Source: Escherichia phage ECML-134. From it: 64,000 bases of DNA. Below the pieces are notes generated by a model. It had not been told where the DNA came from. It was given only the letters and a program-made list of their open reading frames with translations, and did not search any database. The position numbers and the translations under genes are program-made. Location of the stretch: sequence record JX128259; one strand, written 5' to 3'. Positions within the stretch are counted from its first letter, which is position 1, and the number at the start of each line of letters is the position of its first letter. Positions 11,258-62,563 of the stretch are shown piece by piece.

Positions 11258-11266
11258 AATTAATCC

Positions 11267-11799: not shown

Positions 11800-11830
11800 C
11801 TTTTAAAATGAAGAAAGGGGCCGAAGCCCC
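11800..11830 (-). terminator. Hairpin (GGGGC-uucg-GCCCC on the - strand) plus T-rich tract after hoc
   Basis: GC stem at 11817-11830, T-rich run downstream on the - strand. Confidence 0.55.
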
Positions 11831-11836
11831 TTATGA

Positions 11837-12034
11837 TTATGGATAGGTATAGATGATACCAGTTTCTAAAGCAGTTTTATGAATGATATATCCATTACGT
11901 GATTCTTGGACATCAACTTCTGGATAGTCTTTCATCATCTTCTGAAGAGTGTAACGATGCAGGTAGTATTTACTATCTGGATCTTCAGTTTTCCAATCTT
12001 TACCTTCTTCAGTCATTTTTTGGATTTCATCCAT
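11837..12034 (-). CDS. hoc: Hoc C-terminal segment, in frame with the upstream hoc ORF
   Basis: 65 codons in the same frame as 12050..12967, separated from it by TAG plus five sense codons (C G W W V). Confidence 0.7.
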   Translation of the reverse strand: MDEIQKMTEEGKDWKTEDPDSKYYLHRYTLQKMMKDYPEVDVQESRNGYIIHKTALETGIIYTYP

Positions 12035-12049
12035 AACCCACCAACCGCA

Positions 12050-12967: not shown

Positions 12968-12976
12968 AAGTTATCC

Positions 12977-13657: not shown

Positions 13658-13670
13658 AATATTTCCTCAG

Positions 13671-13678
13671 TATAAATA
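13671..13678 (+). promoter_or_regulatory. Late promoter TATAAATA upstream of segE
   Basis: Exact TATAAATA 29 nt upstream of the segE ATG. Confidence 0.5.
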
Positions 13679-13706
13679 TAGATATATTTATTACTCGGAA
13701 AATAGT

Positions 13707-14324
13707 ATGTACCACTTTGTATATGAAACAACAAATCTAATAAATGGTAAAAAGTATATAGGAAAACACTCTACTGATGACTTGAATGATGGTTACCTTG
13801 GTTCCGGTAAGGCAATTCAGCAGGCTATAAAGAAGTATGGTGAAAACAATTTCTCTAGAACAATACTAAAAGAGTTTAAAACTTCCGAAGAAGCGTACAT
13901 GTATGAAGAAGAAATTATAACTCCTGAAATAATAAAAAGCAAAAATTATTATAATATGAAACCTGGTGGAATTGGTGGAATTGTTATGACTACAGAGGTT
14001 ATAGCAAAGATGAAAGAATCTTCCGCTAAGAGATTTGAAAACTCACCGGGCACGGTATTAGGTACAACTTGTTACACTAATGGAACTAAAAATATTTTTA
14101 TTAAACCTGGAGAACTTGTTCCAGAAGGATTTGTAAAAGGGATGGTTCATCCTAATAGAAAGTCCAGAAAAGGATGTAAAGTCAAACCGACTACCACAGG
14201 AACTTTTTGGGTCAATAATGGCGCAATAAATAAATTAATACAACCAGACGGTATTATTCCCGACGGATTTATTAAAGGTCGTCTCATGAAAAGAGATTCT
14301 AAAGGCAAATTTAGTAAGGCATAA
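13707..14324 (+). CDS. segE: GIY-YIG homing endonuclease SegE
   Basis: 205 aa; GIY-YIG motif (HFVYETTNLINGKKYIGKH); between inh and uvsW as in T4. Confidence 0.88.
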   Translation: MYHFVYETTNLINGKKYIGKHSTDDLNDGYLGSGKAIQQAIKKYGENNFSRTILKEFKTSEEAYMYEEEIITPEIIKSKNYYNMKPGGIGGIVMTTEVIAKMKESSAKRFENSPGTVLGTTCYTNGTKNIFIKPGELVPEGFVKGMVHPNRKSRKGCKVKPTTTGTFWVNNGAINKLIQPDGIIPDGFIKGRLMKRDSKGKFSKA

Positions 14325-14326
14325 TT

Positions 14327-30470: not shown

Positions 30471-30757
30471 TAGAACCTCATCTGAAAGCCGTGTGATTTA
30501 ACATTACCACCGCCAATATCAGAAATGTTAATTTCACTCGCAATTGAAGGGTCAATGTCAATTTCACGATTGAGTTTAGTGATAGCTAAAGTATCACGCC
30601 CATTTACTGTACGGAATTCTAAAGGACAAACCACATCAACGTAATTTTTAATCGATTCACTAGTAGGTTGCAAATGAGCAGGAAGGTCTTTGGGCGCCTT
30701 TGAGAAAACCACTTCACAGAAATTTTTACGGGTATCAAAATAAGTAGTCATAAACAT
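30470..30757 (-). CDS. Small protein (30.5 position)
   Basis: 95 aa ORF. Confidence 0.65.
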   Translation of the reverse strand: MFMTTYFDTRKNFCEVVFSKAPKDLPAHLQPTSESIKNYVDVVCPLEFRTVNGRDTLAITKLNREIDIDPSIASEINISDIGGGNVKSHGFQMRF

Positions 30758-30767
30758 GGTATTTTCC

Positions 30768-30783
30768 TCAGTAAGGGGCCGAA
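30768..30783 (-). terminator. Hairpin (AGGGGC-cgaa-GCCCCT) between 30.6 and 30.5 positions
   Basis: Perfect 6-bp GC stem with tetraloop. Confidence 0.45.
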
Positions 30784-30798
30784 GCCCCTCATTTTATT

Positions 30799-31164
30799 TT
30801 AAATATCAAATTCATTAAGAACTACATCAAAGATTGCTTCGAGATGTTCAGGTTTAGCTCTGTTACTCAGAATATGACGAATCCAAGTTTTAACCAAAAG
30901 CTTGCGATTAGCACCATTCCAACAAGGATGAGTCCCTAAATCGCGTTGACGAAAATCATCATCCAGAGCGATTTTAAAGTTGGAACCTTCCATTGTGATT
31001 GAAACCGTGATGCCATTTTCAAATCGCATATAAACGTAATTAGGAGTCATATACTGTTCAATTTCGCATACTGATCCATTTTGATGTTTCCAAAGGCAAA
31101 TAGTATCAATAGAACCTGCAATACCATTAGAAACATATTTACGTTCAAAGTTGATGTAGTTCAT
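30799..31164 (-). CDS. Small protein (30.6 position)
   Basis: 121 aa ORF. Confidence 0.65.
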   Translation of the reverse strand: MNYINFERKYVSNGIAGSIDTICLWKHQNGSVCEIEQYMTPNYVYMRFENGITVSITMEGSNFKIALDDDFRQRDLGTHPCWNGANRKLLVKTWIRHILSNRAKPEHLEAIFDVVLNEFDI

Positions 31165-31232
31165 TTTTATTCTCCGTGATGTTTAATTGCGGTACAGGTA
31201 TATAATATCATATCCTGTACCAAAGTAAACAA

Positions 31233-31565
31233 TTATTTTACTACTTTCCAATGCTTCATGTCAAGTTTACCAACTTTTTTCATCTTCTCAATTAAGCGTT
31301 CGGCACGTTGGCGAGCTGTAACATAATACCATTCACCTAATTCATTTTGTTCAATTTTTCCAACGATTACTGTATTCAATTCATAAATCCAACCGGTAAA
31401 GAAATTATGAACTTGAATTGTAAAGGTGAAATCTGTTCCCATACCTTCTGTTGTTTCTACTTCAATAATATCACCTTCAACTGCCATTAAGAACCACATA
31501 GTTTCATTATATTTACCATTGAAGCATTTAGTTTTAACTGCAGCGTTCAGATTAATCGTTTTCAT
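31233..31565 (-). CDS. Small protein (30.7 position)
   Basis: 110 aa ORF with AAGGAG Shine-Dalgarno and an early promoter upstream. Confidence 0.7.
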   Translation of the reverse strand: MKTINLNAAVKTKCFNGKYNETMWFLMAVEGDIIEVETTEGMGTDFTFTIQVHNFFTGWIYELNTVIVGKIEQNELGEWYYVTARQRAERLIEKMKKVGKLDMKHWKVVK

Positions 31566-31593
31566 TTTATTCTCCTTTGTTTGTGTAAGATAA

Positions 31594-31622
31594 TACTATC
31601 ACAAAGGAACCATATTGTAAAC
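31594..31622 (-). promoter_or_regulatory. T4-type early promoter (-35 GTTTAC, -10 TAGTAT)
   Basis: On the - strand: GTTTAC, 17-nt spacer, TAGTAT, then AAGGAG and ATG at 31565. Confidence 0.55.
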
Positions 31623-31653
31623 AACTTTGTGCAATCTTTGGAAAATAAAAAAG

Positions 31654-31671
31654 GACTCCCGAAGGAGTCCT
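31654..31671 (-). terminator. Hairpin (GGACTCC-cgaa-GGAGTCC) after the small basic-protein ORF
   Basis: Perfect 7-bp stem directly after the stop at 31676. Confidence 0.5.
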
Positions 31672-31675
31672 CAAC

Positions 31676-31894
31676 TTATGCTTTCTGCTTACCAAAACGA
31701 GAAGCATCATCTCGAAGAACCGCACGTGCTCGGCGCATGATCTTCTCAACAGTTTGATTGATACGAGAGTTCGACCCACGCTTGTAGCCAGCGCGTTTAG
31801 AATCACCAACTTTCTTTTCAACTGCTTTCTTTGCTTTAACTTGTTTTGCCATTATAAATTCTCTTTTAAATGAAAATGCAGGACTTATTGGCAT
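31676..31894 (-). CDS. Small, highly basic Lys/Arg-rich protein (30.8/30.9 region)
   Basis: ORF with an alternative start at 31852 (MAKQVKAKKAVEKK...); start not resolved. Confidence 0.55.
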   Translation of the reverse strand: MPISPAFSFKREFIMAKQVKAKKAVEKKVGDSKRAGYKRGSNSRINQTVEKIMRRARAVLRDDASRFGKQKA

Positions 31895-32073
31895 TGCCTG
31901 CGCAAGCCCTCAAGGGGGTACTTAGGTTTTGAATATTTACCGACAGGATAACCATAAACCTCGTCATCATACCACCAAGACTTACACAGATAACACTTTT
32001 CTGACGCATGATAGTAACATTCAAGAGGTACACCGTAAAACTGCCGGGGTCTTAAAACTATAATGATTCGCAA
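31885..32073 (-). CDS. Small Cys-rich protein (30.9 region)
   Basis: 62 aa ORF with several Cys and Tyr. Confidence 0.5.
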   Translation of the reverse strand: MRIIIVLRPRQFYGVPLECYYHASEKCYLCKSWWYDDEVYGYPVGKYSKPKYPLEGLRRQCQ

Positions 32074-32140
32074 ATCATTAATCAGACAGTTCGACGGCTC
32101 CTCGATTTAGCTCACACTAAGGCAGTGAATCTCCAATAAA

Positions 32141-32389
32141 TTACTTCAATGTTACCACAAAGTGACGAACTGCTTTTCGTGCAGCAGAAGCCAGAGGCTT
32201 AGCATATTTAAGTTCATCTTTTTCCTGAAGCTCAGCAGCTAATGCAGTTTGAGCAGGATTCAGATGTTTGAAATAACGCAGGATTTCAAGAGCTTCGGCT
32301 TCAACATCAATAGATGCGCCATAGTTTTCGTGACCATTATTCCATGCGTTTCGTTGCAGTTCAAGAGCGTGTTGTAATTGTTTAATCAT
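32141..32389 (-). CDS. rIII: rIII lysis-inhibition accessory protein
   Basis: 82 aa, T4 length and position upstream of gene 31. Confidence 0.85.
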   Translation of the reverse strand: MIKQLQHALELQRNAWNNGHENYGASIDVEAEALEILRYFKHLNPAQTALAAELQEKDELKYAKPLASAARKAVRHFVVTLK

Positions 32390-32536
32390 TTAAAAATTCT
32401 CGTTAGAGATTAAAACTCGGTAGTCACGTTCTTCTGAATTTCATCTTCTTTCGACAGATCTCTCAGTTGTAGACTACCACGTAGAATTGTTCGGTTAACA
32501 TATTATTCCGACACCCAATTCATATTATTATTTATA

Positions 32537-32872
32537 TCACTTATAAAGACATGGAATAGCTTTATAGTGGCAAGTGACGAATTTTTGTTTAATTTCTTTT
32601 GGCTGCTTAAGACCCAGAGCTACAAAAGGATGCGGAACGTTTCGAATTTGACCAACTGGAAGAGAAGTCAAATCACCAACTTCGCAGAAACCTTCAGGAA
32701 CATCAGGACCAACAGAGTGAACTACACACAGTTCAGGAACTTCACCTTGAACACGTTTACCGATAATAAGTCCTGATTCTGTAACTTCTTCATCACCGGC
32801 TTGTGCAGGTTCAGAAACTAAAATAACATATTCACCGACAGCACGAATTGGTAGCTGTTGTACTTCAGACAT
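32537..32872 (-). CDS. 31: gp31 co-chaperonin (GroES analogue)
   Basis: 111 aa, matches T4 gp31 length and position. Confidence 0.92.
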
Positions 32873-32928
32873 CGTTTTTCCTTTTTGTTAACAGATGAAT
32901 TAATAATAACAAATAATTCTTAAAGCAT

Positions 32929-33237
32929 TTATTTACCAATAAATTGGAGTAAATGCTCAACTTTCATACCATTAACGGAAATCAATTTGTCAATAGAAAA
33001 ACCTCGCCATGCACCAAGCTCGACATCAAACACTGGAATCATGTCAGTAGATTCTTTCCGAGTAGATTCAGTCAATTTACCAGTTTGCATGGTTGGCATA
33101 AAGTCTGCATCACGAGTACCTTTCATAGTACGAATAGTACCATCAGACTTTTCAAAAACTACGTTTGAAACACCCATGGACAATTTAGTTTTCAAAATTT
33201 CGCGAATTGCTACTTTCTGCTCAGTTGTCAGTTTCAT
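32929..33237 (-). CDS. Small protein (31.1 position)
   Basis: 102 aa ORF. Confidence 0.7.
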   Translation of the reverse strand: MKLTTEQKVAIREILKTKLSMGVSNVVFEKSDGTIRTMKGTRDADFMPTMQTGKLTESTRKESTDMIPVFDVELGAWRGFSIDKLISVNGMKVEHLLQFIGK

Positions 33238-33474
33238 TTATTTACCTATCACAGTTTTAATATGAGTTGTTCCACGTTCTTTAAGGGTGGAAAGTAATTT
33301 TTGGCATTTTTCTAAATCAGATTTCCAACTATATGGTCTATCAATACTAGTCCAATCAGTTTTATAATACTGTTTCCATTTAGAGAAAAAATATTTCTTA
33401 TACTCTACAGCAAATGAGATGTTCTCGTTAGAATAAGAACTAATTGCTGTGAGCTTTACCAAACGAAATTTCAT
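33238..33474 (-). CDS. Small protein (31.2 position)
   Basis: 78 aa ORF. Confidence 0.65.
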   Translation of the reverse strand: MKFRLVKLTAISSYSNENISFAVEYKKYFFSKWKQYYKTDWTSIDRPYSWKSDLEKCQKLLSTLKERGTTHIKTVIGK

Positions 33475-34055
33475 TATTCACCACAGAATTCGTTGATATT
33501 TTCCCAGTTTAACTTATTCAAGTTTTTCTTAGGAACATTAAACACTTCAATACCTGCATTTCGCAGAATATCATCCCAGCCAGGTTTATTTTTATCGTAT
33601 GTTTCACAATAAACCAGCTTTTTAATACCAGATTGAGCTATCGCTTTTGCACAATCTGGGCAAGGAGAAAGTGTTACATACATAGTAGCACCTTCAATAG
33701 AAGAACCATTTCGTGCAGCAAACAAAATTGCATTTAGTTCAGCATGAATTTCATTTTTAGACGACCATTCAGAGTGAGCGCTACGATGTTCTTTCGCCAA
33801 AACAAAACGATCAGTTGAACCAAATGATACGCATTCAGGCTTATGGCCTTGAATGATAGTGTGTTTAGGCTTATTCAACAACCAACCTTGCTCAGCAGCA
33901 TAATCACAACAGTTCACACCCCCTGCGGGTGAACCATTATACCCAGTAGAAATAATACGTCCATTCTTTTCAATTACTGCTCCTACCTTCCAGGAGCAAC
34001 ATTTTGATTCCTGTGATACTAAATATGCAATTTGAAGTACTGTACTCGCTTTCAT
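33474..34055 (-). CDS. cd: dCMP deaminase
   Basis: 193 aa; zinc-binding deaminase motifs HAELNAI and SPCPDCAKAI. Confidence 0.95.
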   Translation of the reverse strand: MKASTVLQIAYLVSQESKCCSWKVGAVIEKNGRIISTGYNGSPAGGVNCCDYAAEQGWLLNKPKHTIIQGHKPECVSFGSTDRFVLAKEHRSAHSEWSSKNEIHAELNAILFAARNGSSIEGATMYVTLSPCPDCAKAIAQSGIKKLVYCETYDKNKPGWDDILRNAGIEVFNVPKKNLNKLNWENINEFCGE

Positions 34056-34390
34056 TTCATAATCACCAGATAAGCAGATTTAGCAGTTTCAACACGATAA
34101 ATTTCGTGACGAAGTTTAGTTATACTTTTAATAACAGAACTAATTATATTCTGCCCATCTTTAAAGCGGTTTTTCTTATCAATAAAAATTGCGCCAACCA
34201 TCTTTTTGTGAAGCTCAACTGGATACTTCGTCACAATAATAGCATCATTCACAGAAGGATGAATACTATTCACCAGAGTATCATTCATTAAAGTTATTCT
34301 AATGAACTGTGCTGTTTCAGAATCAAGCGCTCTATGATCGCCAGTATCATTTTCAAGACAATTATCAATTATATCAGTTAAATTCATCAT
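34052..34390 (-). CDS. Small protein (cd.1 position)
   Basis: 112 aa ORF overlapping the cd start. Confidence 0.65.
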   Translation of the reverse strand: MMNLTDIIDNCLENDTGDHRALDSETAQFIRITLMNDTLVNSIHPSVNDAIIVTKYPVELHKKMVGAIFIDKKNRFKDGQNIISSVIKSITKLRHEIYRVETAKSAYLVIMK

Positions 34391-34626
34391 AGTACGCCAT
34401 ACACCCTTTGTGCTTCAACTAATCCATCAAAATCCAGTTTAAGATGCGATATTTGATCGCCATCACCTGGATTCACAATTACTAATACTGAACGAGGAGT
34501 TTCGGTAATAACACGAACCGATGTTTCAGGAAATCGTTCAGAAACCTTATTTACTAATTCCTGTGCAAATAGTTTAACTTTTTCTTGGAATTCTTTAACA
34601 GTAATTGGTTTTTCACTTAGCAGCAT
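34387..34626 (-). CDS. Small protein (cd.2 position)
   Basis: 79 aa ORF. Confidence 0.65.
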   Translation of the reverse strand: MLLSEKPITVKEFQEKVKLFAQELVNKVSERFPETSVRVITETPRSVLVIVNPGDGDQISHLKLDFDGLVEAQRVYGVL

Positions 34627-35147
34627 GTTGATCCCAGCTCCTTACTTTCAACGTTTTTAACTAATTTGACAGAAACTAATTCAGCATCTTGAGTAATCAT
34701 TACCGGACCTTCTTCATACTCTTCAAGATATTCTAGTGCTTTCTTTTTAGCTTCTTCCTTCGTATCAGTTTGAGCATAGATATAAAACATACAACCAGTA
34801 ATACCTACTACTTTCCACTTAATTTCTTTATCAGTTTTAATTTCAAATTTACTGACAGAATCATCTTTTTGAACTTCTTCGAAAAAAGAATATTCTAACA
34901 TATAAGCAATTGAAAATAGCGGGCTAACTTTATAGGATTCTCCCATTACATCAACAGCTTTATACCAGCAGTCATCAATTTCGCGTTTAATGCTAATAAC
35001 ATTTTTCGCAGGATCTATTTTTACTTTAAATGAATTTTCCCCAATAAACTGGGCAATTCGTTTATTAGCCCCGCAAGTTTCATTAAAAATATCTTTATAC
35101 CCAGTTTTAAAGCGATAAACCTTATCTTCTTCAAACCATTCGCTCAT
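34617..35147 (-). CDS. Protein at cd.3 position
   Basis: 176 aa ORF. Confidence 0.7.
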   Translation of the reverse strand: MSEWFEEDKVYRFKTGYKDIFNETCGANKRIAQFIGENSFKVKIDPAKNVISIKREIDDCWYKAVDVMGESYKVSPLFSIAYMLEYSFFEEVQKDDSVSKFEIKTDKEIKWKVVGITGCMFYIYAQTDTKEEAKKKALEYLEEYEEGPVMITQDAELVSVKLVKNVESKELGSTCC

Positions 35148-35210
35148 TTCAATTTCCTCATTTGTTTTTGGTAGAGCTATAATATCACAACTCTACCGTA
35201 AAGTAAACCA

Positions 35211-35516
35211 TTAAATCGCTTTGAATTCCGCAGTTTGAGATTCAAAGCGAATGTCGCCTTTGATAACTAGCTCAGCATCAAGACCGAATACAACAATGAT
35301 ATGCGCGGAACCTGGATACAACGTAATGGCAATAGAATCCACCTGGTCTGGAAGCAAAGTGTTCAATACATGAGTCACTTGAGCATGGATTCGAAGCTCA
35401 GCTGCGTTATCAAGTTTTTCAAACATATTATTAGCGATAATTTGGCTAAACACTACTTCTACGATTTTAGAGTAAGTCGGAAACATATTTACCTCACATA
35501 ATTTTCTTCGAGCCAA
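35211..35516 (-). CDS. Small protein (cd.4 position)
   Basis: 101 aa ORF. Confidence 0.65.
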   Translation of the reverse strand: MARRKLCEVNMFPTYSKIVEVVFSQIIANNMFEKLDNAAELRIHAQVTHVLNTLLPDQVDSIAITLYPGSAHIIVVFGLDAELVIKGDIRFESQTAEFKAI

Positions 35517-35681
35517 TCAATAACATCCAAAGCGTTATCAAAAGTTTCGCCATCTACTTTGTCTTCTGTTTCATAATCAAGAACATCTAGGCCTACTCTT
35601 CCGTCAACAATAGGCCATAGACAAAATAGATATTTCTTTTCTTTTTCAATTTTATCACAAAGACGATAAATCTTTTCTAGG

Positions 35682-35689
<8 letters not shown>
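35489..35689 (-). CDS. Small acidic protein (cd.5 position)
   Basis: 66 aa ORF. Confidence 0.6.
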
Positions 35690-37082
<1,393 letters not shown>

Positions 37083-37086
<4 letters not shown>

Positions 37087-37313
37087 TTATTTTTCTCAAC
37101 CAACGATTGAATATAATCATGCAGGTCTTTAGATGCTTTACCCCACTTATTTTGATATTCATTTTTAAGATTAGCTCGAGATTGAGCTAATAAAACATCA
37201 TTAGTTGGAGGTAAAGATTCTAACCGCTGAATCTGGCGTCCATAAATCATTGCAGCCATCTCGGATTCATAAATCAATCCTTTGAGATGCTCAAATTGAT
37301 GCCATGAAATCAT
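37083..37313 (-). CDS. Small protein between pseT and the spanin pair
   Basis: 76 aa ORF. Confidence 0.6.
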
Positions 37314-51737: not shown

Positions 51738-51771
51738 CTTATTATTGAAAACACAATAGGAGCCCGGGAGA

Positions 51772-54700
51772 ATGGCCGAGATTAAAAGAAAGTTCAGAGC
51801 AGAAGATGGTCTGGACGCAGGTGGCGATAAAATAATCAACGTAGCTTTAGCTGATCGTACCGTAGGAACTGACGGTGTTAACGTTGATTACTTAATTCAA
51901 GAAAACACAGTTCAGCAATATGATCCAACTCGTGGATATTTAAAAGATTTTGTAATCATTTATAATAATCGTTTTTGGGCAGCAACGGATAATATTCCAA
52001 AACCTGCTGGAAATTTTAATAGAATTCGTTGGAAAGCATTACGTACTGATGCCGTATATACAACCGTATCATCTGGACCATATCAATTAAAATCCGGAGA
52101 AGCAATTTCAGTAGATACATCAGTTGGCAATGACATTGAATTTACTTTACCACCTTCTCCGCTTGATGGAGAAACCGTAATAATTCAAGATATCGGTGGA
52201 AAACCTGGCATAAATCAGGTTAAAATAAATTCTTCAAATCAGAGTATTGTCAATTTTAGAGGTGAACAGGTACGTTCAGTTTTAATGACTCATCCAAAGT
52301 CACAGATGGTATTCATTTTTAATAATCGTTTGTGGCAAATGTATATTGCTGATTATAGCAGAGAAGCTGCGATTGTTACTCCATCGACTGCATATCAAGC
52401 ACAATCTAATGATTTTATCGTACGTAGATTTACTTCTGCCGCACCGATTAATGTTAAACTTCCAAGATTTGCCAATCATGGAGATATCATTAATTTCGTT
52501 GATTTAGATAAATTAAATCCACTTTATCATACAATTGTTACAACATATGATGAAACGACGTCAGTGCAAGAAGTTGGAACTCATTCCATTGAAGGCCGTA
52601 CATCGATTGACGGTTTCTTGATGTTTGATGATAATGAGAAATTGTGGAGATTGTTTGACGGGGATAGTAAAGCACGTTTACGCATTATAACAACTAATTC
52701 TAATATTCGTCCAAATGAAGAAGTCATGGTATTTGGCGCGAATAACGGAACAACTCAGACAATTGAGCTTCAGCTTCCGACTGATATTTCTGTTGGTGAT
52801 ACTGTTAAAATTTCCATGAATTACATGAGAAAAGGACAAACAGTTAAAATCAAAGCTGCCGGTGAAGATAAAATTGCTTCTTCAGTTCAATTGCTGCAAT
52901 TCCCAAAACGTTCAGAATATCCGCCTGAAGCTGAATGGGTAACAGTTCAAGAATTAGTTTTTAACGGTGAAACTAATTATGTTCCAGTTTTACAACTTGC
53001 TTATATAGAAGATTCTGATGGAAAATACTGGGTTGTACAGCAAAACGTTCCAACTGTAGAAAGAGTAGACTCTTTAAATGCTTCTACTAGAGCAAGATTA
53101 GGCGTAATTGCTTTAGCTACGCAAGCTCAAGCAAATGCTGATTTAGAAAGTTCTCCACAAAAAGAATTGGCAATTACTCCAGAAACGTTAGCTAATCGTA
53201 CTGCTACAGAAACTCGCAGAGGTATTGCAAGAATAGCAACTACTGCTCAAGTGAATCAGAACACCACATTCTCTTTTGCGGATGACCTTATCATCACTCC
53301 TAAAAAGCTGAATGAAAGAACTGCTACAGAAACTCGTAGAGGTGTTGCTGAAATTGCTACGCAGCAGGAAACTAATACAGGTACTGATGATACTACAATC
53401 ATCACTCCTAAAAAGCTTCAAGCTCGTCAAGGTTCTGAATCATTATCTGGTATTGTAACTTTTGTATCTACGGCGAGTGCTACTCCAGCTTCTAGTCGTG
53501 AATTAAATGGTACAAATGTTTATAATAAAAACACTAATAATTTAGTTGTTTCGCCAAAAGCACTTGATCAGTATAAAGCTACTCCAACGCAACAAGGCGC
53601 AGTAATTTTAGCAGTTGAAAGTGAAGTAATTGCTGGACAAAGCCAAGAAGGATGGGCAAATGCGGTTGTAACGCCAGAAACGTTACATAAAAAGACATCA
53701 ACTGATGGAAGAATTGGTTTAATTGAAATTGCTACGCAAAGTGAAGTTAATACAGGAACTGACTATACTCGTGCAGTCACTCCTAAAACTTTAAATGACC
53801 GTAGAGCAACTGAAAGTTTAAGTGGTATAGCTGAAATTGCTACGCAAGTTGAATTCGACGCAGGCGTCGACGATACTCGTATCTCTACACCATTAAAAAT
53901 TAAAACCAGATTTAATAGTACTGATCGTACTTCTGTTGCTACTCTATCTGGATTAGTTGAATCAGGAACTCTCTGGGACCATTATACCCTTAATATTCTT
54001 GAAGCAAATGAGACACAGCGTGGTACACTTCGTGTAGCTACACAAGTTGAAGCTGCTGCAGGAACATTAGATAATGTTTTAATAACTCCTAAAAAGCTTT
54101 TAGGTACTAAATCTACTGAAGCGCAAGAAGGTGTTATTAAAGTTGCAACTCAGTCTGAAACTGTGACTGGAACATCAGCAAATACTGCTGTATCTCCAAA
54201 AAATTTAAAGTGGATTGTGCAGAGTGAACCAACTTGGGCAGCAACTACTCTGATAAGAGGGTTTGTTAAAACTTCATCTGGTTCAATTACATTCGTTGGT
54301 AATGATACCGTTGGTTCAACGCAGTCATTAGAATCATATGAGAAAAATGGTTATGCAGTATCACCATATGAATTAAATCGCGTATTAGCAAATTATTTGC
54401 CATTAAAAGCAAAAGCTGTAGATAGTAATTTATTAGATGGTCTAGATTCGCTCCAGTTCATTCGTAGGGACATTGCACAAACAGTTAATGGTTCACTAAC
54501 CTTAACCCAACAAACGAATCTGAGTGCCCCTCTTGTATCATCTAGTACTGCTACATTCGGTGGATCAGTTTCAGCAAATAGTACATTAACTATTTCTAAT
54601 ACTGGAACGGCAACTCGTCTGATTTTTGAGAAAGGACCTCAAACTGGAACAAACCCGGCTCAAACGATGACAGTCAGAGTGTGGGGAAATCAATTTAGTG

Positions 54701-55641
54701 GGGAATCAGACACAACACGTTCTACCGTATTTGAAGTTAGTGATGAAACGTCTAGTCATTTTTATTCTCAGCGTAATAAAGCTGGAAATATAACATTTAA
54801 TATCAACGGTACAGTAACACCGATAAATGTTAATGCTTCAGGAACATTGAATGCAAATGGCGTAGCAACATTTGGTAATTCAGTCACTGCAACTGGTGAA
54901 ATTATTTCTCGAAGCGCAAATGCTTTCCGTGCTATTAACGGAAATTATGGTTTCATTGTTCGCAATGATGGGTCAGTAACGAATTTTATGCTTACTGCAT
55001 CGGGTGATCAAACCGGCGGATTTAATGGATTGCGTCCTTTAGCTATTAATAATGCATCTGGCCAAGTAACGATTGGTGAAAGCTTAATCATTGCAAAAGG
55101 TGCTACTATAAGTTCAGGCGGTTTAACTGTTAACTCGAGAATTCGTTCTCAAGGTGTTAAAACATCTGATTTATATACCCGTGCGCCAACATCTGATACA
55201 GTAGGATTCTGGTCAATTGATATTAACGATTCAGCCACTTATAATCAATTCCCTGGTTATTTTAAAATGGTTGAAAAAACTAATGAAGTGACTGGACTTC
55301 CATATTTAGAACGCGGTGAAGAAGTTAAATCTCCTGGTACATTGACTCAGTTTGGTAACACGCTTGATTCGCTTTATCAAGATTGGATTACTTATCCAAC
55401 GACTCCAGAAGCACGTACCACTCGCTGGACGCGTACATGGCAGAAAACTAAAAATTCTTGGTCAAGTTTTGTTCAGGTATTCGATGGAGGTAATCCTCCT
55501 CAACCTTCGGATATAGGAGCAATCCCATCTGATAATGGAATAATAGGTAATCTTACTATTCGTGATTTCTTACGAATTGGTAATGTTCGCATTATTCCTG
55601 ACCCAGTGAATAAAACTGTTAAATTTGAATGGGTTGAATAA
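51772..55641 (+). CDS. 34: Long tail fibre proximal subunit gp34
   Basis: 1289 aa, same as T4 gp34; internal ~30-aa repeats. Confidence 0.95.
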   Translation: MAEIKRKFRAEDGLDAGGDKIINVALADRTVGTDGVNVDYLIQENTVQQYDPTRGYLKDFVIIYNNRFWAATDNIPKPAGNFNRIRWKALRTDAVYTTVSSGPYQLKSGEAISVDTSVGNDIEFTLPPSPLDGETVIIQDIGGKPGINQVKINSSNQSIVNFRGEQVRSVLMTHPKSQMVFIFNNRLWQMYIADYSREAAIVTPSTAYQAQSNDFIVRRFTSAAPINVKLPRFANHGDIINFVDLDKLNPLYHTIVTTYDETTSVQEVGTHSIEGRTSIDGFLMFDDNEKLWRLFDGDSKARLRIITTNSNIRPNEEVMVFGANNGTTQTIELQLPTDISVGDTVKISMNYMRKGQTVKIKAAGEDKIASSVQLLQFPKRSEYPPEAEWVTVQELVFNGETNYVPVLQLAYIEDSDGKYWVVQQNVPTVERVDSLNASTRARLGVIALATQAQANADLESSPQKELAITPETLANRTATETRRGIARIATTAQVNQNTTFSFADDLIITPKKLNERTATETRRGVAEIATQQETNTGTDDTTIITPKKLQARQGSESLSGIVTFVSTASATPASSRELNGTNVYNKNTNNLVVSPKALDQYKATPTQQGAVILAVESEVIAGQSQEGWANAVVTPETLHKKTSTDGRIGLIEIATQSEVNTGTDYTRAVTPKTLNDRRATESLSGIAEIATQVEFDAGVDDTRISTPLKIKTRFNSTDRTSVATLSGLVESGTLWDHYTLNILEANETQRGTLRVATQVEAAAGTLDNVLITPKKLLGTKSTEAQEGVIKVATQSETVTGTSANTAVSPKNLKWIVQSEPTWAATTLIRGFVKTSSGSITFVGNDTVGSTQSLESYEKNGYAVSPYELNRVLANYLPLKAKAVDSNLLDGLDSLQFIRRDIAQTVNGSLTLTQQTNLSAPLVSSSTATFGGSVSANSTLTISNTGTATRLIFEKGPQTGTNPAQTMTVRVWGNQFSGESDTTRSTVFEVSDETSSHFYSQRNKAGNITFNINGTVTPINVNASGTLNANGVATFGNSVTATGEIISRSANAFRAINGNYGFIVRNDGSVTNFMLTASGDQTGGFNGLRPLAINNASGQVTIGESLIIAKGATISSGGLTVNSRIRSQGVKTSDLYTRAPTSDTVGFWSIDINDSATYNQFPGYFKMVEKTNEVTGLPYLERGEEVKSPGTLTQFGNTLDSLYQDWITYPTTPEARTTRWTRTWQKTKNSWSSFVQVFDGGNPPQPSDIGAIPSDNGIIGNLTIRDFLRIGNVRIIPDPVNKTVKFEWVE

Positions 55642-55649
55642 GAGGTATT

Positions 55650-56765
55650 ATGGAAAAATTTATGGCAGAGTTTGGACAAGGATATGTCCAAACGCCATTT
55701 TTATCGGAAAGCAATTCAGTAAGATATAAAATAAGCATAGCGGGTTCTTGCCCGCTTTCTACTGCGGGACCATATGTTAAATTTCAGGATAATCCCGTTG
55801 GAAATCAAACATTTAGTGCAGGTCTTCATTTAAGAGTTTTTGACCCTTCTACGGGAGCATTAGTTGATAGTAAGTCATATGCTTTTTCTGCTTCAAACAA
55901 TACAACATCTGCCGCTTTTGTCAGTTTCATGAATTCTTTGTCAAACAATAAACTTGTTGCTATATTAACTAGCGGAAAGGTTAATTTTCCTCCTGAAGTG
56001 GTATCTTGGTTAAGGGAAGCAGGAACTTCAGTTTTTCCATCAGATTCCGTATTGTCAAGATTTGACGTATCATATGCTGCTTTTTACACTTCTTCTAAAA
56101 GAGCTATCGCATTAGAGCATGTTAAACTAAGTAATAGAAAAAGCACAGATGACTATCAAACTATGTTAGATGTTGTATTTGATAGTTTAGAAGACGTTGG
56201 AGCGACAGGATTTCCAAAAAGAACTTATGAAAGCGTTGAACAATTTATGTCTGCGGTTGGAGGAACTAATAATGAAATTGCGCGATTGCCAACTTCAGCT
56301 GCTATAAGTAAACTTTCTGACTACAATTTAATTCCTGGTGATGTTCTTTATCTTAAAGCACAGTTATATGCTGATGCTGATTTACTTGATCTTGGAACTA
56401 CAAACATATCCATTCGTTTTTATGATGCATCAAATGGATATATTTCCTCTACCCAAGCTGAGTTTACTGGGCAAGCTGGGTCTTGGGAATTAAAGGAAGA
56501 TTATGTAGTTGTTCCTGAAAATGCAGTCGGATTTACTATATATGCACAGAGAACTGCTCAAGCTGGTCAAGGCGGAATGAGGAATTTAAGCTTTTCTGAA
56601 GTATCAAGAAATGGCGGCATTTCAAAACCTGCCGAATTTGGCGTCAATGGTATTCGTGTTAATTATATCGGTGAATCCTCTTCACCTCCAGATATAATGG
56701 TACTTCCTACACAGGCATCGTCTAAAACTGGTAAAGTGTTTGGACAGGAATTTAGAGAAGTTTAA
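55650..56765 (+). CDS. 35: Long tail fibre hinge protein gp35
   Basis: 371 aa, T4 position. Confidence 0.9.
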   Translation: MEKFMAEFGQGYVQTPFLSESNSVRYKISIAGSCPLSTAGPYVKFQDNPVGNQTFSAGLHLRVFDPSTGALVDSKSYAFSASNNTTSAAFVSFMNSLSNNKLVAILTSGKVNFPPEVVSWLREAGTSVFPSDSVLSRFDVSYAAFYTSSKRAIALEHVKLSNRKSTDDYQTMLDVVFDSLEDVGATGFPKRTYESVEQFMSAVGGTNNEIARLPTSAAISKLSDYNLIPGDVLYLKAQLYADADLLDLGTTNISIRFYDASNGYISSTQAEFTGQAGSWELKEDYVVVPENAVGFTIYAQRTAQAGQGGMRNLSFSEVSRNGGISKPAEFGVNGIRVNYIGESSSPPDIMVLPTQASSKTGKVFGQEFREV

Positions 56766-56769
56766 ACTG

Positions 56770-56795
56770 AGGGAGCCTTCGGGTTCCTTTTTTCT
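56770..56795 (+). terminator. Terminator hairpin (GGGAGCC-uucg-GGUUCCC plus T-run) after gene 35
   Basis: GC stem with one G-U pair followed by TTTTTTCTTT. Confidence 0.6.
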
Positions 56796-56796
56796 T

Positions 56797-56804
56797 TATA
56801 AATA
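56797..56804 (+). promoter_or_regulatory. Late promoter TATAAATA upstream of gene 36
   Basis: Exact TATAAATA 24 nt upstream of the gene 36 ATG. Confidence 0.6.
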
Positions 56805-56827
56805 ATATTAAAATAAAGGGGCATACA

Positions 56828-57517
56828 ATGGCTGATTTAAAAGTAGGTTCAACTGTGGGTGGATCTGTCATTTGGCATCAAGGAAATTTTCCATTGAATT
56901 CAGCCGGTGACGATGTACTCTACAAATCATTTAAAATATATTCAGAATATAATAAACCGCAGGCAGCTGATAACGATTTCGTTTCTAAAGCTAATGGTGG
57001 CACAAAGTCTAGAGGTTTCCAAAAAGAAGTAGAATTTAAAGAAGGCGTTAAGATTTCTGCGACGTTTTCTGGTGGTTCAGACCTGAATGGGTTATATTCT
57101 GGCAATGGAGATGGAGCTTCCAGAGAAAAAGCTAACATGGATTTACATTCATGGTACGGCATTGGTATTTGGAATACATGCACAGGTGATGGGGTCCAGG
57201 GACGCACAATCTGGTTTAATGCCAGGCGTGGTACAATTGAAACAGTTGGCGATATTGTTTCAGGCCGACAAGTTATTTCTAATGCTTCAGTACCGACCGG
57301 CCCAGCACACTTAACTCGCAAAGATTATGTCGATGGAGCAATAAATACTGTTACGACAAATGCAAACTCTAGAGTGTTACGATCTGGTGACACTATGACA
57401 GGTAATTTAACAGCACCAAACTTTTTCTCGCAGAATCCTGCATCTCAACCCTCACATGTTCCACGATTTGACCAAATCGTGATTAAGGATTCTGTTCAAG
57501 ATTTCGGCTATTATTAA
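56828..57517 (+). CDS. 36: Long tail fibre distal connector gp36
   Basis: 229 aa, T4 position. Confidence 0.9.
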
Positions 57518-57525
57518 GAGGACTT

Positions 57526-60500
57526 ATGGCTACTTTAAAACAAATACAATTTAAAAGAAGCAAAACTGCAGGTCAACTTCCTGCTGCTTCAGTATTAGCC
57601 GAAGGTGAATTGGCTATTAATTTAAAAGATAAAACAATTTTCACAAAAGATGACTCAGGCAATGTTATAGAATTAGGTTTAAAATATGGAGGAACAATTG
57701 ATGGTTCTTTAACTGTTAATGGAAATATAATTGGAAATTTAACAGGTAACGCTGCAACTGCAACGAAATTAAAAACAGCACGAAAAATTAATGGTATATC
57801 CTTTGATGGGTCAAAAGATATCACGCTAACTCCATCTGACATAAATGTCAATAGCACAACGTTTATAAAAAATAACGGCGAATTACCTGTTGACGCTAAT
57901 TTAGATGAATATGGGCCCACTGAAGAGTATCTTGGCGTTTGGTCGAAATCTACTTCAACAAATGCGCAACCGGCAAATAAATTCCCAGAAGAAAATGCCG
58001 TAGGTGTACTAGAAGTATTTGTGGCCGGTCAATTTGCTGGTACTCAGAGATATACTGTAAGATCTGGTAACGTATATGTTCGATCTTTGTCTGCTAAATG
58101 GAACGGTGTTAACGGTCCGTGGGGAGTTTGGCGTAATGTTCAAGCGTCAACTCGTCCACTTTCACAAACGATTGACCTTGATAGCTTGGGAGAATTAGAA
58201 CATTGCGGCTTATGGCGAAATAGTTCAAGTTCTATCGCATCGTTTGACCGTCATTATCCAGAAGAAGGAGCAGCCGCACAAGGATTTTTGGAAATTTTTG
58301 AGGGTGGTTTATACACAAGAACTCAACGTTATACAACTAGATTTGGTGTTGTTTATACTCGCTGTCTTGCTGCTGCATGGGATGCATCTGCGCCTAAATG
58401 GGGACCGTGGCAACAAGTCGGTAATGTCACACCGGCGACTTTCTATGACGGAGACCTGAATGATTTTAAAGCTCCTGGGTTATATAACATTTTAGGCACT
58501 GATGCCGTTATTAACTGTCCTACAGGTGAAGGTTTGCCGACTGTTATTGTTGGTTTGCTGGAAGTTAAACAGCGTGCTTCTGGCGGTGCTATTTTCCAAA
58601 AATTTACTACTGCCGGAACGGCTTCAACTACTCGCGATCGTATTTTTGAGCGTGCATATACTGGTGGTGCGTGGGGTGCATGGAACGAAGTATATACATC
58701 TTATTCTCTGCCAATTACTTTGGGTATGGGTGGTATTAAAGCTCAATTAGCGGAGTTAGATTGGCAAACCTTTGATTTTGTCCCTGGTAGTATGTTTAGT
58801 GTTCCTTTGAACAAAATAAAGAATATGCCAGCAAATATGGATTGGGGCACGATTGATGGAAACCTGGTTATGTTTTCCGTTGGTCCTAGCGAACGCACTA
58901 GCACAGGACGTACTGTTCAGATTTGGCGCGGCACCGTATCCCAGACAAACTACCGTTATTTTGTCGTTCGTGTGTTCGGTAATTCTGGAAATAGAACTTG
59001 CACAGTTCGTCGTGTTGTTCTTGAAGATGGTCGCCACACATGGACAGCTCAACAAGATTTTAATGGCGCAGTTAACTTTAACTCTACTGTTAACCTTAAT
59101 AACACTACCACATTTAAAACAGAAGTTAAATTTCGCTCATTGAATGCATTCCGTATGTATGGCGGAAAATTTGGTACATTTTTACGTAATGATGGAGAGA
59201 GTCTTTATATTCTTTCCACCGACGAAGATGATCAACATGGAAACTTTAATACAAATAGACCTTTCCGTTATGAATTAAGAACTGGTGATGTTACTTTGGG
59301 TGGTGCTAGTGGTGCTAACGTTTTAAAATTAAAACGTGATTCTCTCACCGCATTTTTTGGTGGTGATATTAACATGAAAGGCACGATGACTTTTGACGCC
59401 GGACGTTTAGGATCACGAGATTATTTTAAATTTAACCATTGGGGTGATAGTAATAATGCTCGTGATAACATTATTCAGTTAGAAGATAGCAAAGGCGTTC
59501 ATTTTTCCACTGAACGTACTTTAGCGACTGGTGCAATTAAAACTAGATTCTTTGGCGAAACATTCACTGACGGGACATTATACCTAAATCAGATGAATAA
59601 TAGTTCTGAACGATTCTCTATCAACAATTGGGGAAGTTCAGAAGTTGGTCGCGCGGCAGTATTGGAAGTCGGCGATTCCAAAGGTTATCACTTCTATACG
59701 GAACGTAGAACAGATGACACCGTTTTATTTTCTGTAGCTGGTGCTTTGACCGTGCGTGGACCTAACGGAATAACCATCAAAAACTCAACTGGTGCACGCC
59801 ATATCTGGTTTAGAGATGACAGCGAATCGGAAAAGGCTGTTATTTGGGCGACCGATGAGGGTATTTTACATATTCGCAATAACAACGGTGGACAATTTAG
59901 TCATCACTTCCAGGGCGCAATGATTAAACTGGAAGGGCGTGTTCCTTATGATGCAACAAAGGGGATTATCCGTGGTGAAGTTGATGGTGGTGCATATGTT
60001 GCATGGAGAGACCGCCCTGCTGGTTTGTTGGTTGACTGCCAGAAAAGTATTGACAGTGCTCATGCTGTTTGGAAAGCGGTTGATTGGGGGCGTCAATATA
60101 TCGCTGCTATGGACGTTCACTGTCCGGGTGATGGTAATAATACTGCGACAGCGATTCTTCATGTTCAGGCTGCTGATTATCAATTCCACGCAAGCGGAGA
60201 ATTCGTTACCAGTGGTAACGGAAACTTTAACGATGTGTATATTCGTTCTGACCGTCGTCTGAAAATTAATGTTGAAGATTATACCGGAAATGCGTTAAGT
60301 TTGATTGGTAAGCTGAAAGTGAAAACTTACGATAAAGTTAAATCTCTTAAGGACCGTGAAATTATCGGTCATGAGATTGGCATTATCGCACAGGATTTAC
60401 AAGAAATATTACCGGAAGCGGTGAAATCTTCAAAAGTTGGCAATCTTGATAATCCAGACGATGTTCTGACAATTTCTAACTCGGCAGTGAATGCTCTTTT

Positions 60501-60600
60501 AATTAAGGCTATTCAGGAAATGAGTGAAGAAATTAAAGAATTGAAAACTCCTTTCTTTACTAAAATTGCTCGCAAAATTAGTAAATATTTTAAATTCTAA
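57526..60600 (+). CDS. 37: Long tail fibre distal subunit gp37 with C-terminal intramolecular-chaperone (S74-like) domain
   Basis: 1024 aa; C-terminal ~120 aa ([14 protein letters not shown]...[20 protein letters not shown]...) resembles auto-cleaving tail-fibre chaperone domains. Confidence 0.93.
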
Positions 60601-60606
60601 CAACAA

Positions 60607-60621
60607 GGGGGCAACGCCCCC
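60607..60621 (+). terminator. Hairpin (GGGGGC-aac-GCCCCC) after gene 37
   Basis: Perfect 6-bp G/C stem 7 nt after the gp37 stop; short T-run. Confidence 0.45.
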
Positions 60622-60637
60622 CTTTGGAGTATAAATT

Positions 60638-61438
60638 ATGGCAGTAGTTGGTGTTCCTGGTTGGATTGGAAGTTCAGCCGCAAATGAAACAGGACAAAGA
60701 TGGATGAGTCAAGCGGCTGGACAATTAAGATTGGGTGTTCCTTGCTGGATGAGTCAATTTGCAGGTCGCTCGCGAGAAATTATTCATACTGTAGGAGCAA
60801 ACCACAATTTTAATGGTCAGTGGTTCCGTGATAGATGCTTTGAAGCTGGCGGTGCACCTATTGTATTCAATATTGTTGGTGATATCGTTTCTTATTCTAA
60901 AGATGTACCGCTTTTCTTTATGTATGGTGACACTCCTAACGAATACGTTGTCCTTAATATTCATGGTGGTGTCCATATGTGGGGTCGAGGTGGTAATGGT
61001 GGATACACTCACTCAGGTGGAGATGGTAACGGTACACAAGGCGGTCATGTTATTCAAAATGATATCGGTGGACGGCTTCGTATTTGGAACTACGGTGTTA
61101 TAGCTGCTGGCGGTGGTGGCGGTGGTGGTATTGCATATCGTCCACACTCAGGGGCAAACTGGCAAGATATCGGTGGCGGTGGCGGTCGACCTTTCGGTGG
61201 TGCTGGCGGTGGCGGTTATTCCGGTGGTGCTGCTTCTTATGAAGGTCCGGGTGGTGGTTACAACTATGGTAACGCACACTCCGGCGCGGGTGGTAATGCT
61301 GGCGCTGCTGGTCAGAATGCATGGTCTGATGGCGGTAAAGTTCTTAAAGTTGGTGTTGGTGGTGCTTCTGGTCATGCCGTGTTTGGATCTTCTCCAACGT
61401 GGCAAAACGTTGGAATAATATATGGTCCAAGAGTATAA
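60638..61438 (+). CDS. 38: gp38 receptor-recognising adhesin (T2-type, glycine-rich motifs)
   Basis: 266 aa; several poly-Gly tracts (GGGGGGG, GGGGG, GGAGGGG) separated by short variable segments. Confidence 0.88.
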
Positions 61439-61468
61439 TTTGAATAAATATCCTTAAAAGGAGGGTCT

Positions 61469-62125
61469 ATGGCAGCACCTAGAATATCATTTTCACCCTC
61501 TGATATTCTATTTGGTGTTCTAGATCGCTTGTTCAAAGATAACGCTACCGGGAAAGTTCTTGCTTCCCGAGTAGCTGTCGTAATTCTTTTATTTATGATG
61601 GCGATTGTTTGGTATAGGGGAGATAGTTTCTTTGAGTACTATAAGCAATCAAAGTATGAAACATACCGTGAAATTATTGAAAAGGAAAGAAATGCACGCT
61701 TTGAATCTGTCGCCCTGGAACAACTCCAGATAGTTCATATATCATCTGAGGCAGACTTTAGTGCGGTGTATTCTTTCCGCCCTAAAAACTTAAACTATTT
61801 TGTTGATATTATAGCATATGAAGGAAAATTACCTTCAACAATAAGTGAAAAATCACTTGGAGGATATCCTGTTGATAAAACTATGGATGAATATACAGTT
61901 CATTTAAATGGACGTCATTATTATTCCAATTCAAAATTTGCTTTTTTACCAACTAAAAAGCCTACTCCCGAAATAAACTACATGTACAGTTGTCCATATT
62001 TTAATTTGGATAATATCTATGCTGGAACGATAACCATGTACTGGTATAGAAATGATCATATAAGTAATGACCGCCTTGAATCAATATGTTCTCAGGCGGC
62101 CAGAATATTAGGAAGGGCTAAATAA
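61469..62125 (+). CDS. t: Holin T
   Basis: 218 aa; matches recalled T4 holin; single N-terminal transmembrane segment. Confidence 0.95.
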   Translation: MAAPRISFSPSDILFGVLDRLFKDNATGKVLASRVAVVILLFMMAIVWYRGDSFFEYYKQSKYETYREIIEKERNARFESVALEQLQIVHISSEADFSAVYSFRPKNLNYFVDIIAYEGKLPSTISEKSLGGYPVDKTMDEYTVHLNGRHYYSNSKFAFLPTKKPTPEINYMYSCPYFNLDNIYAGTITMYWYRNDHISNDRLESICSQAARILGRAK

Positions 62126-62398
62126 TTATTTGTTTGTATACATCTCTAGATATCGATATACACCCTCAAAACCCTCGTTGAATTCGTCGATGAGGGTTTT
62201 CTTATCTTCTTGGGTTAATTCAGAAACAATTTTACGGAATGAATTCTGATTTAACTTTCTACCTTCATGCGTTACTCCAATCTCATTCAGAAATGCAATA
62301 AAATTAGCACGATTCTCAACAATATCTTCTCTGGAAAATTTAATCAAAATAGATGCAACAGTAATAATTTCACGAACTGTATCAATGTTTTTATTCAT
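62126..62398 (-). CDS. asiA: AsiA anti-sigma-70 factor
   Basis: 90 aa, matches recalled T4 AsiA (MNKNIDTVREIITVASILIKFSREDIVENRANFIAFLNEIG...). Confidence 0.95.
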   Translation of the reverse strand: MNKNIDTVREIITVASILIKFSREDIVENRANFIAFLNEIGVTHEGRKLNQNSFRKIVSELTQEDKKTLIDEFNEGFEGVYRYLEMYTNK

Positions 62399-62404
62399 TA
62401 ACTA

Positions 62405-62563
62405 TACCACTCAATTAGTTGACTTTGTTATAATATCATCAGACGCTTGATTTGTAAACTGGTCTGTGTTATTTTCTTCAAAAATTTTTTCTACGAATTC
62501 CTTGAACGACTCACGTTCCTGAGCTACATTATGCTCGATTACCTTTTCAAGATTATGACTCAT
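62405..62563 (-). CDS. Small acidic protein between arn and asiA
   Basis: 52-codon ORF (MSHNLEKVIEHNVAQERESF...) whose ATG overlaps the arn stop (ATGA); the asiA early promoter lies inside it. Confidence 0.45.
62426..62459 (-). promoter_or_regulatory. T4-type early promoter for asiA (-35 GTTTAC, -10 TATAAC)
   Basis: On the - strand: GTTTAC, 17-18-nt spacer, TATTATAAC, about 30 nt upstream of the asiA ATG. Confidence 0.55.

Follow-up and report, generated by a model that had tools for sequence, protein, structure and literature searches.

An Ox2/T6-lineage tail-fibre and adhesin module in Escherichia phage ECML-134 with a predicted OmpA specificity

Known adhesin modules and the ECML-134 locus

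Henning's work of the 1980s made the T-even adhesin module a textbook system, for which crystal structures followed in 2018 and 2026, and the product of Ox2 gene 38 was reportedly characterized as a receptor-recognising protein by Montag, Drexler and Henning in 1987–1991. In fibres of the T2/T6 type, gp37 is described as being cleaved at its C-terminus and then capped by gp38 (PMC3157838, in a passage citing Drexler 1986), and in phage S16 three tryptophans of gp38 fit into pockets on the gp37 trimer and so anchor the adhesin (PMC6851490). The loops between the glycine motifs of gp38 set the choice of receptor (PMC3157838, PMC12032242), and swapping the hypervariable cassette moves the receptor specificity along with it (Trojet 2011, PMC3157838). 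Here we analyse positions 57526–61438 of a 64,000-nucleotide stretch of Escherichia phage ECML-134 (JX128259; the whole stretch is referred to as the window), a segment that extends from the start of gp37 exactly to the stop of gp38. We put the probability at roughly 90% that this segment encodes the tip with which the long tail fibre of a Tequatrovirus recognises its receptor, built to the T2/T6/Ox2-type rather than the T4-type design and working by the mechanism set out below. The biology of such modules is already known, and the locus offers little fundamental novelty.

Six plus-strand open reading frames (ORFs) of 1289, 371, 229, 1024, 266 and 218 amino acids (aa) occupy 51772–62125 in that order, and their Pfam and PHROG matches identify them as gp34, gp35, gp36, gp37, gp38 and holin t, the canonical T-even order. 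The two that constitute the module are gp37, the large distal long-tail-fibre subunit (57526–60600, plus strand, 1024 aa; PHROG 1699, E=5e-233 over residues 1–1019), and gp38, an adhesin of the Ox2 type (60638–61438, plus strand, 266 aa), so that the coordinates given in the first-pass annotation, a reading of the letters made before any database search, proved exact. Gene 38 lies directly 3′ of gene 37 and 5′ of holin t, an arrangement common to Ox2, T2 and T6, and the resemblance to the Ox2 locus extends to the end of gene 37 with its Peptidase_S74 (S74) domain, a hairpin spacer, gene 38 and gene t. Phage T4 has the same locus and gene order, and its gp37 is 79% identical over residues 1–66 (57526–57723, plus strand; 76% to T2), a conserved N-terminus that by homology would form the junction with gp36. 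However, T4 combines a gp37 needle tip with gp38/gp57A chaperones, and the ECML-134 module shares with it neither a C-terminal tip, nor the HxH motif, nor an S74 relationship, and T4 gp38 is unrelated. In BLASTP of gp37 against T4 gp37, residues 1–66 were the only common segment, with no homology to the T4 C-terminal tip, and gp37 contains no HxH motif, the iron-binding signature of the T4 tip; both results agree with the earlier claim that a T4-like His-rich tip is absent.

The assignment is carried by gene order, domain membership, the catalytic motif, the fold, the pattern of variability and near-identity to adhesins of known receptor; the domain, glycine and variability values of gp37 and gp38 are far beyond chance, and no sequence feature contradicts it. 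In the proposed mechanism, genes 36, 37 and 38 would be transcribed late from TATAAATA at 56797, and three gp37 chains would trimerise with folding nucleated by the S74 domain (residues 908–1024). This domain would then remove itself by Ser908/Lys913 autoproteolysis to leave mature gp37 1–907, and one gp38 monomer would settle onto the exposed trimer tip via its N-terminal helical domain and residues W9, W22 and W37. The Gly-rich motifs of gp38 would form a polyglycine-II sandwich scaffold that holds the hypervariable loops at the distal end, towards the host receptor. By analogy with homologues, cleavage, the 3:1 stoichiometry, a virion location of gp38 and binding to OmpA are all predicted.

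The label ‘T2-type’ given in the first-pass annotation holds for the architecture of the module, but not for its lineage, which is that of Ox2/T6/RB32. Overall gp38 identity is 95.1% to Ox2 (X05675.1; over 266 aa), 75% to T6 and 51% to T2, and T6 gp37 is 74% identical across residues 1–1024, whereas the similarity of T2 gp37 is confined to the two ends (the N-terminus and the chaperone region). By these comparisons the fibre belongs to the Ox2/T6/RB32 lineage, and gp37 is T6/Ox2-like over its whole length.

The gp38 adhesin and its predicted receptor

Membership of gp38 in the adhesin family is supported by strong matches to Pfam GP38 (PF05268, E=1.6e-66, 224.7 bits against a cut-off of 25), to Gp38_N (PF21721, residues 1–42, E=1.5e-19, 70.1 bits against a cut-off of 25) and to PHROG 2056 (E=1e-108). 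Glycine makes up 26% of the protein and 38% of residues 110–250, with runs of seven (158–164), five (179–183), four (190–193) and three (205–207). Sequence matches in the PDB were 9V85 (PP01, E=4e-65), the crystal structure of the PP01 gp38 receptor-binding domain (PMC12892980), and 6F45_D (S16, E=2e-44). The same two entries were the only significant Foldseek matches in the PDB of an AlphaFold2 model built on 86 sequences (mean predicted local distance difference test, pLDDT, 86.5), with E=2.5e-26 and a template modelling (TM) score of 0.88 for 9V85 and E=1.1e-20 and TM 0.81 for 6F45_D, the next match having E>2. In this model the fold is a helical attachment domain followed by a beta-helix and a polyglycine-II sandwich. 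Family, fold and glycine runs thus all bear out the earlier identification of the 266-aa product as an adhesin of the T2/T6/Ox2 type with poly-Gly tracts.

The N-terminal attachment domain (residues 1–45; 60638–60772, plus strand) corresponds to Gp38_N and holds the anchor tryptophans W9, W22 and W37, which align with the tryptophans of S16 gp38 and are unchanged in Ox2, T2 and T6. S16 (6F45) and PP01 (9V85) therefore share with ECML-134 the fold and the three anchors, and S16 gp37 in addition the S74 motif SDRR(I/L)K, whereas gp38 identity is only 42% to S16 and 58–59% to PP01, the loops differ, and the receptor of both adhesins is OmpC.

Beyond the attachment domain and the beta-helix, residues 116–250 (60983–61387, plus strand) constitute a specificity cassette in which conserved Gly motifs alternate with hypervariable segments. 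In an alignment of 88 sequences, the Gly motifs have a mean column entropy of 0.2–0.9 bits, whereas the hypervariable segments at ~122–134, 165–178, 194–204, 208–215 and 226–240 reach 1.5–2.6 bits and contain most of the indels. The expectation that the loops between the Gly runs are variable is thus met by the alignment, and their role as receptor determinants, also foreseen in the first-pass annotation, has the literature cited above behind it. The cassette is the predicted OmpA-binding surface, on the sequence comparisons that follow.

Comparisons of gp38 took in M1, T2, T6, Ox2, FL08, AV119, PP01 and S16, with K3 gp38 left out. Identity to Ox2 is 97.8% in the specificity region (116–250) and 96.7% in the hypervariable segments, where SH7, KIT03 and wV7 are at 90–92%, AV119 at 88.5% and FL08 at 86.9%, whereas T6 (Tsx) has 12.9%, T2 (OmpF/FadL) 13.1% and M1 9.2%. 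Hypervariable-segment identity is bimodal, with one cluster at 75% or above and all remaining homologues at 26% or below. Ox2 is a classic OmpA phage (PMC12032242), and for FL08 and AV119, which define the broad-host-range ‘type 1’ OmpA adhesins, the need for OmpA was shown by deletion and complementation (Lutz 2025, PMC12032242). The gp38 of RB32 and RB33, two phages that need OmpA and for which lipopolysaccharide (LPS) composition matters (PMC3157838), is 88% identical to that of ECML-134. Individual contact residues agree in part: the type 1 contact motif R165-V-H-S-G-A (FL08 numbering), in which R165 is the main contact, appears here as R168-P-H-S-G-A, with R168, H170, S171, G172 and A173 kept; the two replacements at contact positions, V166 to P169 and D217 to N220 (FL08 to ECML-134), are both common to Ox2. 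Since ECML-134 gp38 has the loops of Ox2 and the type 1 binders FL08 and AV119, E. coli OmpA of the type 1 mode is likely to be the primary receptor, which is what the alignment with T2, T6 and Ox2, recommended at the outset as a means of predicting the receptor, returns through its Ox2-like loops. Some dependence on the LPS core is possibly to be expected as well, by analogy with what is reported for RB32 and Ox2.

The closest relatives also differ from the ECML-134 adhesin in instructive ways. Ox2 gp38, of identical length, differs by 13 substitutions, of which several fall in the last 11 residues and three in the specificity region (N174K, G193R and N209D, ECML-134 to Ox2). FL08 and AV119 gp38 share the hypervariable segments (87–88%), R165, the H-S-G-A residues and the modular plan, and differ, apart from the Pro and Asn replacements that ECML-134 has in common with Ox2, in the N-terminal 115 residues, which are only 72–74% identical and therefore represent a different attachment and beta-helix allele.

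Several points weigh against this picture. A change of one residue in Ox2 gp38 is reported to be enough to alter or widen the choice of receptor (Drexler 1989, 1991, as cited in PMC12892980), and it is on this account that some doubt about OmpA is retained. The three specificity-region differences from Ox2 stand beside N220 at the position of the type 1 contact D217. Dissimilar loop sets (M1 and the type 2 adhesins) can bind OmpA too, so that a receptor is more safely predicted from similar loops than excluded from dissimilar ones. Finally, the gp37 tip that is predicted to bear gp38 is another allele than that of Ox2 and T6 (see below), whereas the attachment domain of gp38 is almost unchanged. 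The best-surviving alternative is hence a primary receptor other than OmpA (Tsx, OmpC, OmpF, FadL, OmpX or LPS alone), with the few substitutions relative to Ox2 switching specificity. Besides the reported effect of single Ox2 mutations and the replacements just named, it can draw on the fact that the best PDB sequence match is the OmpC-binding PP01 gp38. That match, however, rests on the conserved scaffold while the loop segments differ, and hypervariable identity is 87–97% to OmpA-dependent adhesins as against ~13% to those of T6 and T2. N174 and G193, moreover, are the residues found in the OmpA-dependent FL08 and AV119, N220 is shared with Ox2, and gp38 phylogeny predicts the receptor (Lutz 2025, PMC12032242). 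We consider a switch away from OmpA unlikely. The preferred assignment to OmpA would be useful in the design of phage cocktails, where resistance through ompA or LPS mutations may be anticipated, and type 1 OmpA binding has been linked by Lutz et al. to a broader host range.

The N-terminal part of gp38 and its specificity part are, as judged from sequence, uncoupled from one another. Identity over residues 1–115 and over the hypervariable segments is, respectively, 97% and ~13% for T6 gp38, 74% and 87% for FL08, and 44% and 84% for P0055; T6 itself binds Tsx (PMC3157838). A sliding comparison gave 97% identity to T6 and ~80% to Ox2 over 60805–60909, part of the N-terminal domain, whereas the ~400 bp at 60985–61389 are 92–100% Ox2-like as against 35–67% T6-like. 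For RB3, RB5–RB10, U115, SHFML-26 and others, DNA similarity stops at query position 3424, in gp38 codon ~105 and just 5′ of the first Gly motif. Loop-by-loop shuffling was considered and rejected, as none of the 87 homologues is a true chimera that joins ECML-134-like and unlike hypervariable segments in one gp38. The sequence comparisons point to inheritance of the hypervariable segments as a block, with breakpoints in the conserved flanks at gp38 ~105–116 and ~251, and in experimental gp38 chimeras a crossover was never found between the first and last Gly motifs (Trojet 2011, PMC3157838). The view of the variable loops as a recombination hot-spot is thereby upheld for modular exchange but not for the site of the junctions, which lie in the conserved flanks and not in the loops. 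The locus provides one more natural example in which a ~400-bp specificity cassette, and the distal half-fibre as a whole, are each exchanged as a unit among T-even genomes.

The naming of gp38 homologues in GenBank is inconsistent, both ‘tail protein and peptidase’ and ‘distal long tail fiber assembly catalyst’ being in use. The record ‘Pseudomonas phage PsgM02F’ (OR584013.1) includes a gp38 with 95.9% identity to the OmpA-type adhesin of ECML-134, and one gp38 cluster carries a Bacillus cereus label; both host labels probably reflect contamination or mislabelling. In P0078, a 303-aa ORF fuses the S74 domain to gp38, and the gene 37 stop codon has probably been lost or misassembled.

The gp37 fibre and its C-terminal chaperone domain

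The C-terminal end of gp37 (residues 908–1024; 60247–60600, plus strand) is an intramolecular chaperone domain of the Peptidase_S74 family (PF13884, ‘chaperone of endosialidase’). The Pfam match covers residues 908–967 and positions 1–58 of the 58-position model (E=3.2e-14, 53.4 bits against a cut-off of 22), and it begins at Ser908 within the motif V-Y-I-R-S908-D-R-R-L-K913. The catalytic dyad of the endosialidase and T5 pb1 chaperone domains consists of a Ser and a Lys five residues downstream. By analogy, Ser908 is predicted to act as nucleophile and to mark the cleavage site, with Lys913 as general base, and a cut at Ser908 would free a C-terminal fragment of 117 aa, close to the segment of ~120 aa that had been described as chaperone-like from the letters alone. 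The motif VYIRSDxRLK is unchanged in the C-termini of T2, T6 and Ox2 gp37, the S16 gp37 construct has SDRRIK, and the S74 region can be aligned both to this construct (6F45_A) and to human MYRF (7DC3). At the 3′ end of the domain the DNA is 92–95% identical to Ox2 and T6, consistent with purifying selection.

Immediately upstream lies the distal tip (residues ~800–907; 59923–60246, plus strand), an allele that differs from the tips of Ox2 and T6. Nucleotide identity to either phage is only ~35–45% across 59848–60190, and the tip protein is alignable yet divergent. In the light of the S16 gp37(3)–gp38 structure 6F45 (PMC6851490), residues ~800–907 would remain after processing and should carry gp38. 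The combination of a divergent tip allele with an Ox2/T6-type gp38 attachment domain raises the rather remote possibility of a promiscuous docking interface which, if real, would be usable for fibre engineering.

These two features bear on a further alternative, in which the S74-like C-terminus is an inactive remnant kept in the mature fibre, with gp38 bound elsewhere or the fibre end unlike the T2/S16 model. Cleavage of ECML-134 gp37 is indeed a prediction, and the tip that precedes the domain is a divergent allele. Against this, the full-length Pfam match starts exactly at Ser908, the Ser/Lys dyad and its flanking motif are unchanged across T2, T6 and Ox2, T2 gp37 has been documented to undergo proteolytic processing (Drexler 1986, as cited in PMC3157838), and the 92–95% DNA identity at the 3′ end is what purifying selection would leave; an inactive domain is very improbable. 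Scarcely credible is a gp38 that acts as an assembly chaperone only, like T4 gp38, and stays out of virions while the gp37 tip binds the receptor: the position of the gene is that of T4 gene 38 and some close homologues in GenBank bear the ‘assembly catalyst’ label, but gp38 has no similarity to the T4 gp38 chaperone (BLASTP E=3.2) and is an adhesin-family protein in both sequence and fold, gp37 has neither a T4 needle tip nor HxH motifs, crystal structure 6F45 shows S16 gp38 attached to the tip of gp37 (PMC6851490), and exchange of the cassette transfers specificity (Trojet 2011, PMC3157838).

The shaft of gp37 contains three tandem, pyocin-knob-like repeats of ~90 aa each (residues ~113–395; 57862–58710, plus strand). 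BLAST of gp37 against itself reported no internal repeats, and a direct pairwise comparison was needed to reveal them (42% identity between repeats 1 and 2, E=8e-21). Pfam searches with gp37 sub-segments (knob repeats, middle section and tip) gave chance-level matches only, and NCBIfam returned nothing. Relatives of the repeats in tail fibres of E. coli prophages are labelled ‘pyocin knob domain-containing protein’, and an AlphaFold2 model of the repeats (pLDDT 70) matched receptor-binding proteins of Staphylococcus phages and the R1 pyocin fibre 6CL5. That the knobs offer a second, carbohydrate-binding contact surface is a doubtful proposition; were it true, the distal half-fibre would recognise two ligands, OmpA via gp38 and LPS or O-antigen via the gp37 knobs, and ligand binding by the knobs could account for reports that Ox2- and RB32-type phages depend on LPS as well. 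Further along, residues 519–581 (59080–59268, plus strand) form a Gp34_trimer-like domain (Pfam PF21446, E=1.3e-13), with matches to the gp34 entries 4UXE and 5NXF in the PDB. Residues 513–592 (59062–59301) are 37.5% identical to residues 1023–1102 in the C-terminal region of the phage's own gp34, which indicates that the proximal and distal half-fibres share this domain.

Locus layout, expression signals and the relationship to phage SCS4

The module is preceded by gp34, the proximal long-tail-fibre subunit (the first ORF of 51772–62125, plus strand, 1289 aa), and the gp35 connector (55650–56765, plus strand, 371 aa), both assigned by family match. These are followed by gp36, the small subunit of the distal half-fibre and the link between gp35 and gp37 (56828–57517, plus strand, 229 aa; Pfam Phage_T4_gp36, E=1.6e-24; PHROG 1425, E=5e-68). 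Its downstream boundary is holin t (61469–62125, plus strand, 218 aa; Pfam Phage_holin_T, E=5.7e-117). Residues 58–125 of gp35 match Pfam ILEI (PF15711, ‘Interleukin-like EMT inducer’; E=4.8e-8, 33.8 bits against a cut-off of 27), a surprising label on a phage hinge protein. Scanned against NCBIfam, gp36, gp37 and gp38 gave no matches. Minus-strand ORFs of the region (63–133 aa) were considered as coding and rejected, all of them lying inside strongly supported plus-strand genes.

A terminator-like hairpin (56769–56790) stands directly 3′ of gene 35, and the T4-type late promoter motif TATAAATA follows at 56797–56804 (plus strand), 5′ of gene 36. The motif is also found ahead of gene 34 (51730) and occurs 17 times in the window against 8.2 expected, a count that none of 100 shuffles reached. 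From gene 35 to gene t the copy at 56797 is the sole one, with none immediately 5′ of gene 37 or gene 38, and genes 36, 37 and 38 are therefore probably co-transcribed as one unit. The succession of the gene 35 hairpin and TATAAATA suggests that proximal and distal half-fibre genes are transcribed late as two separate units. A scan for sigma-70 promoters was at background (20 sites against 18.1 expected), and an Rfam scan of 56500–62500 on both strands returned a chance match only (sR60, E=0.41; 19.7 bits, gathering score 50), and no RNA gene is put forward.

The spacer between genes 37 and 38 is 37 nucleotides long and contains a GC-rich inter-cistronic hairpin with a GGGGG/CCCCC core (60604–60626, plus strand; −13.3 kcal/mol) that adjoins the Shine-Dalgarno sequence of gene 38, GGAG (60626–60629). 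T2, T6, Ox2 and T4 have a hairpin at the equivalent site, with differing sequences. The hairpin could tune gp38 output relative to gp37, for which a ratio of 1:3 is expected, or stabilise the mRNA.

The DNA is that of a Tequatrovirus, and its closest record is Escherichia phage vB_EcoM_SCS4 (ON506924.1), at 99.8% identity over 57526–61438 and ~96–98% over the rest of the window. The two sequences agree without a mismatch over 4,415 bp (56975–61389), from gp36 codon ~50 to gp38 codon ~251, whereas the flanks of this tract diverge by 2–20% per 250 bp and the proximal fibre genes (51751–56975) by ~7.6%. All eight nucleotide differences within 57526–61438 fall in 61390–61427, in the last 40 bp of gene 38, and they change S252 to A, I260 to A and P264 to S in SCS4 gp38; this cluster, at residues 251–264 of the conserved gp38 C-terminus, has the look of a short recombined stretch. 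The assembly index contains no exact copy of the ECML-134 gp38 protein. A single recent transfer of the cassette, suggested by the 4,415-bp tract, was withdrawn as an explanation, because comparably long exact tracts occur elsewhere in both genomes (6,395 bp at 7937–14331, 3,652 bp at 33452–37103 and 2,782 bp at 30669–33450); these tracts therefore speak for general mosaicism with junctions at the fibre locus and not for a unique transfer of the module. In the SCS4 record (locus at 5125–11600), gp35, gp36, gp38 and holin t are all annotated as ‘hypothetical protein’, and for its gp38 the name Ox2-type adhesin can now be given confidently.

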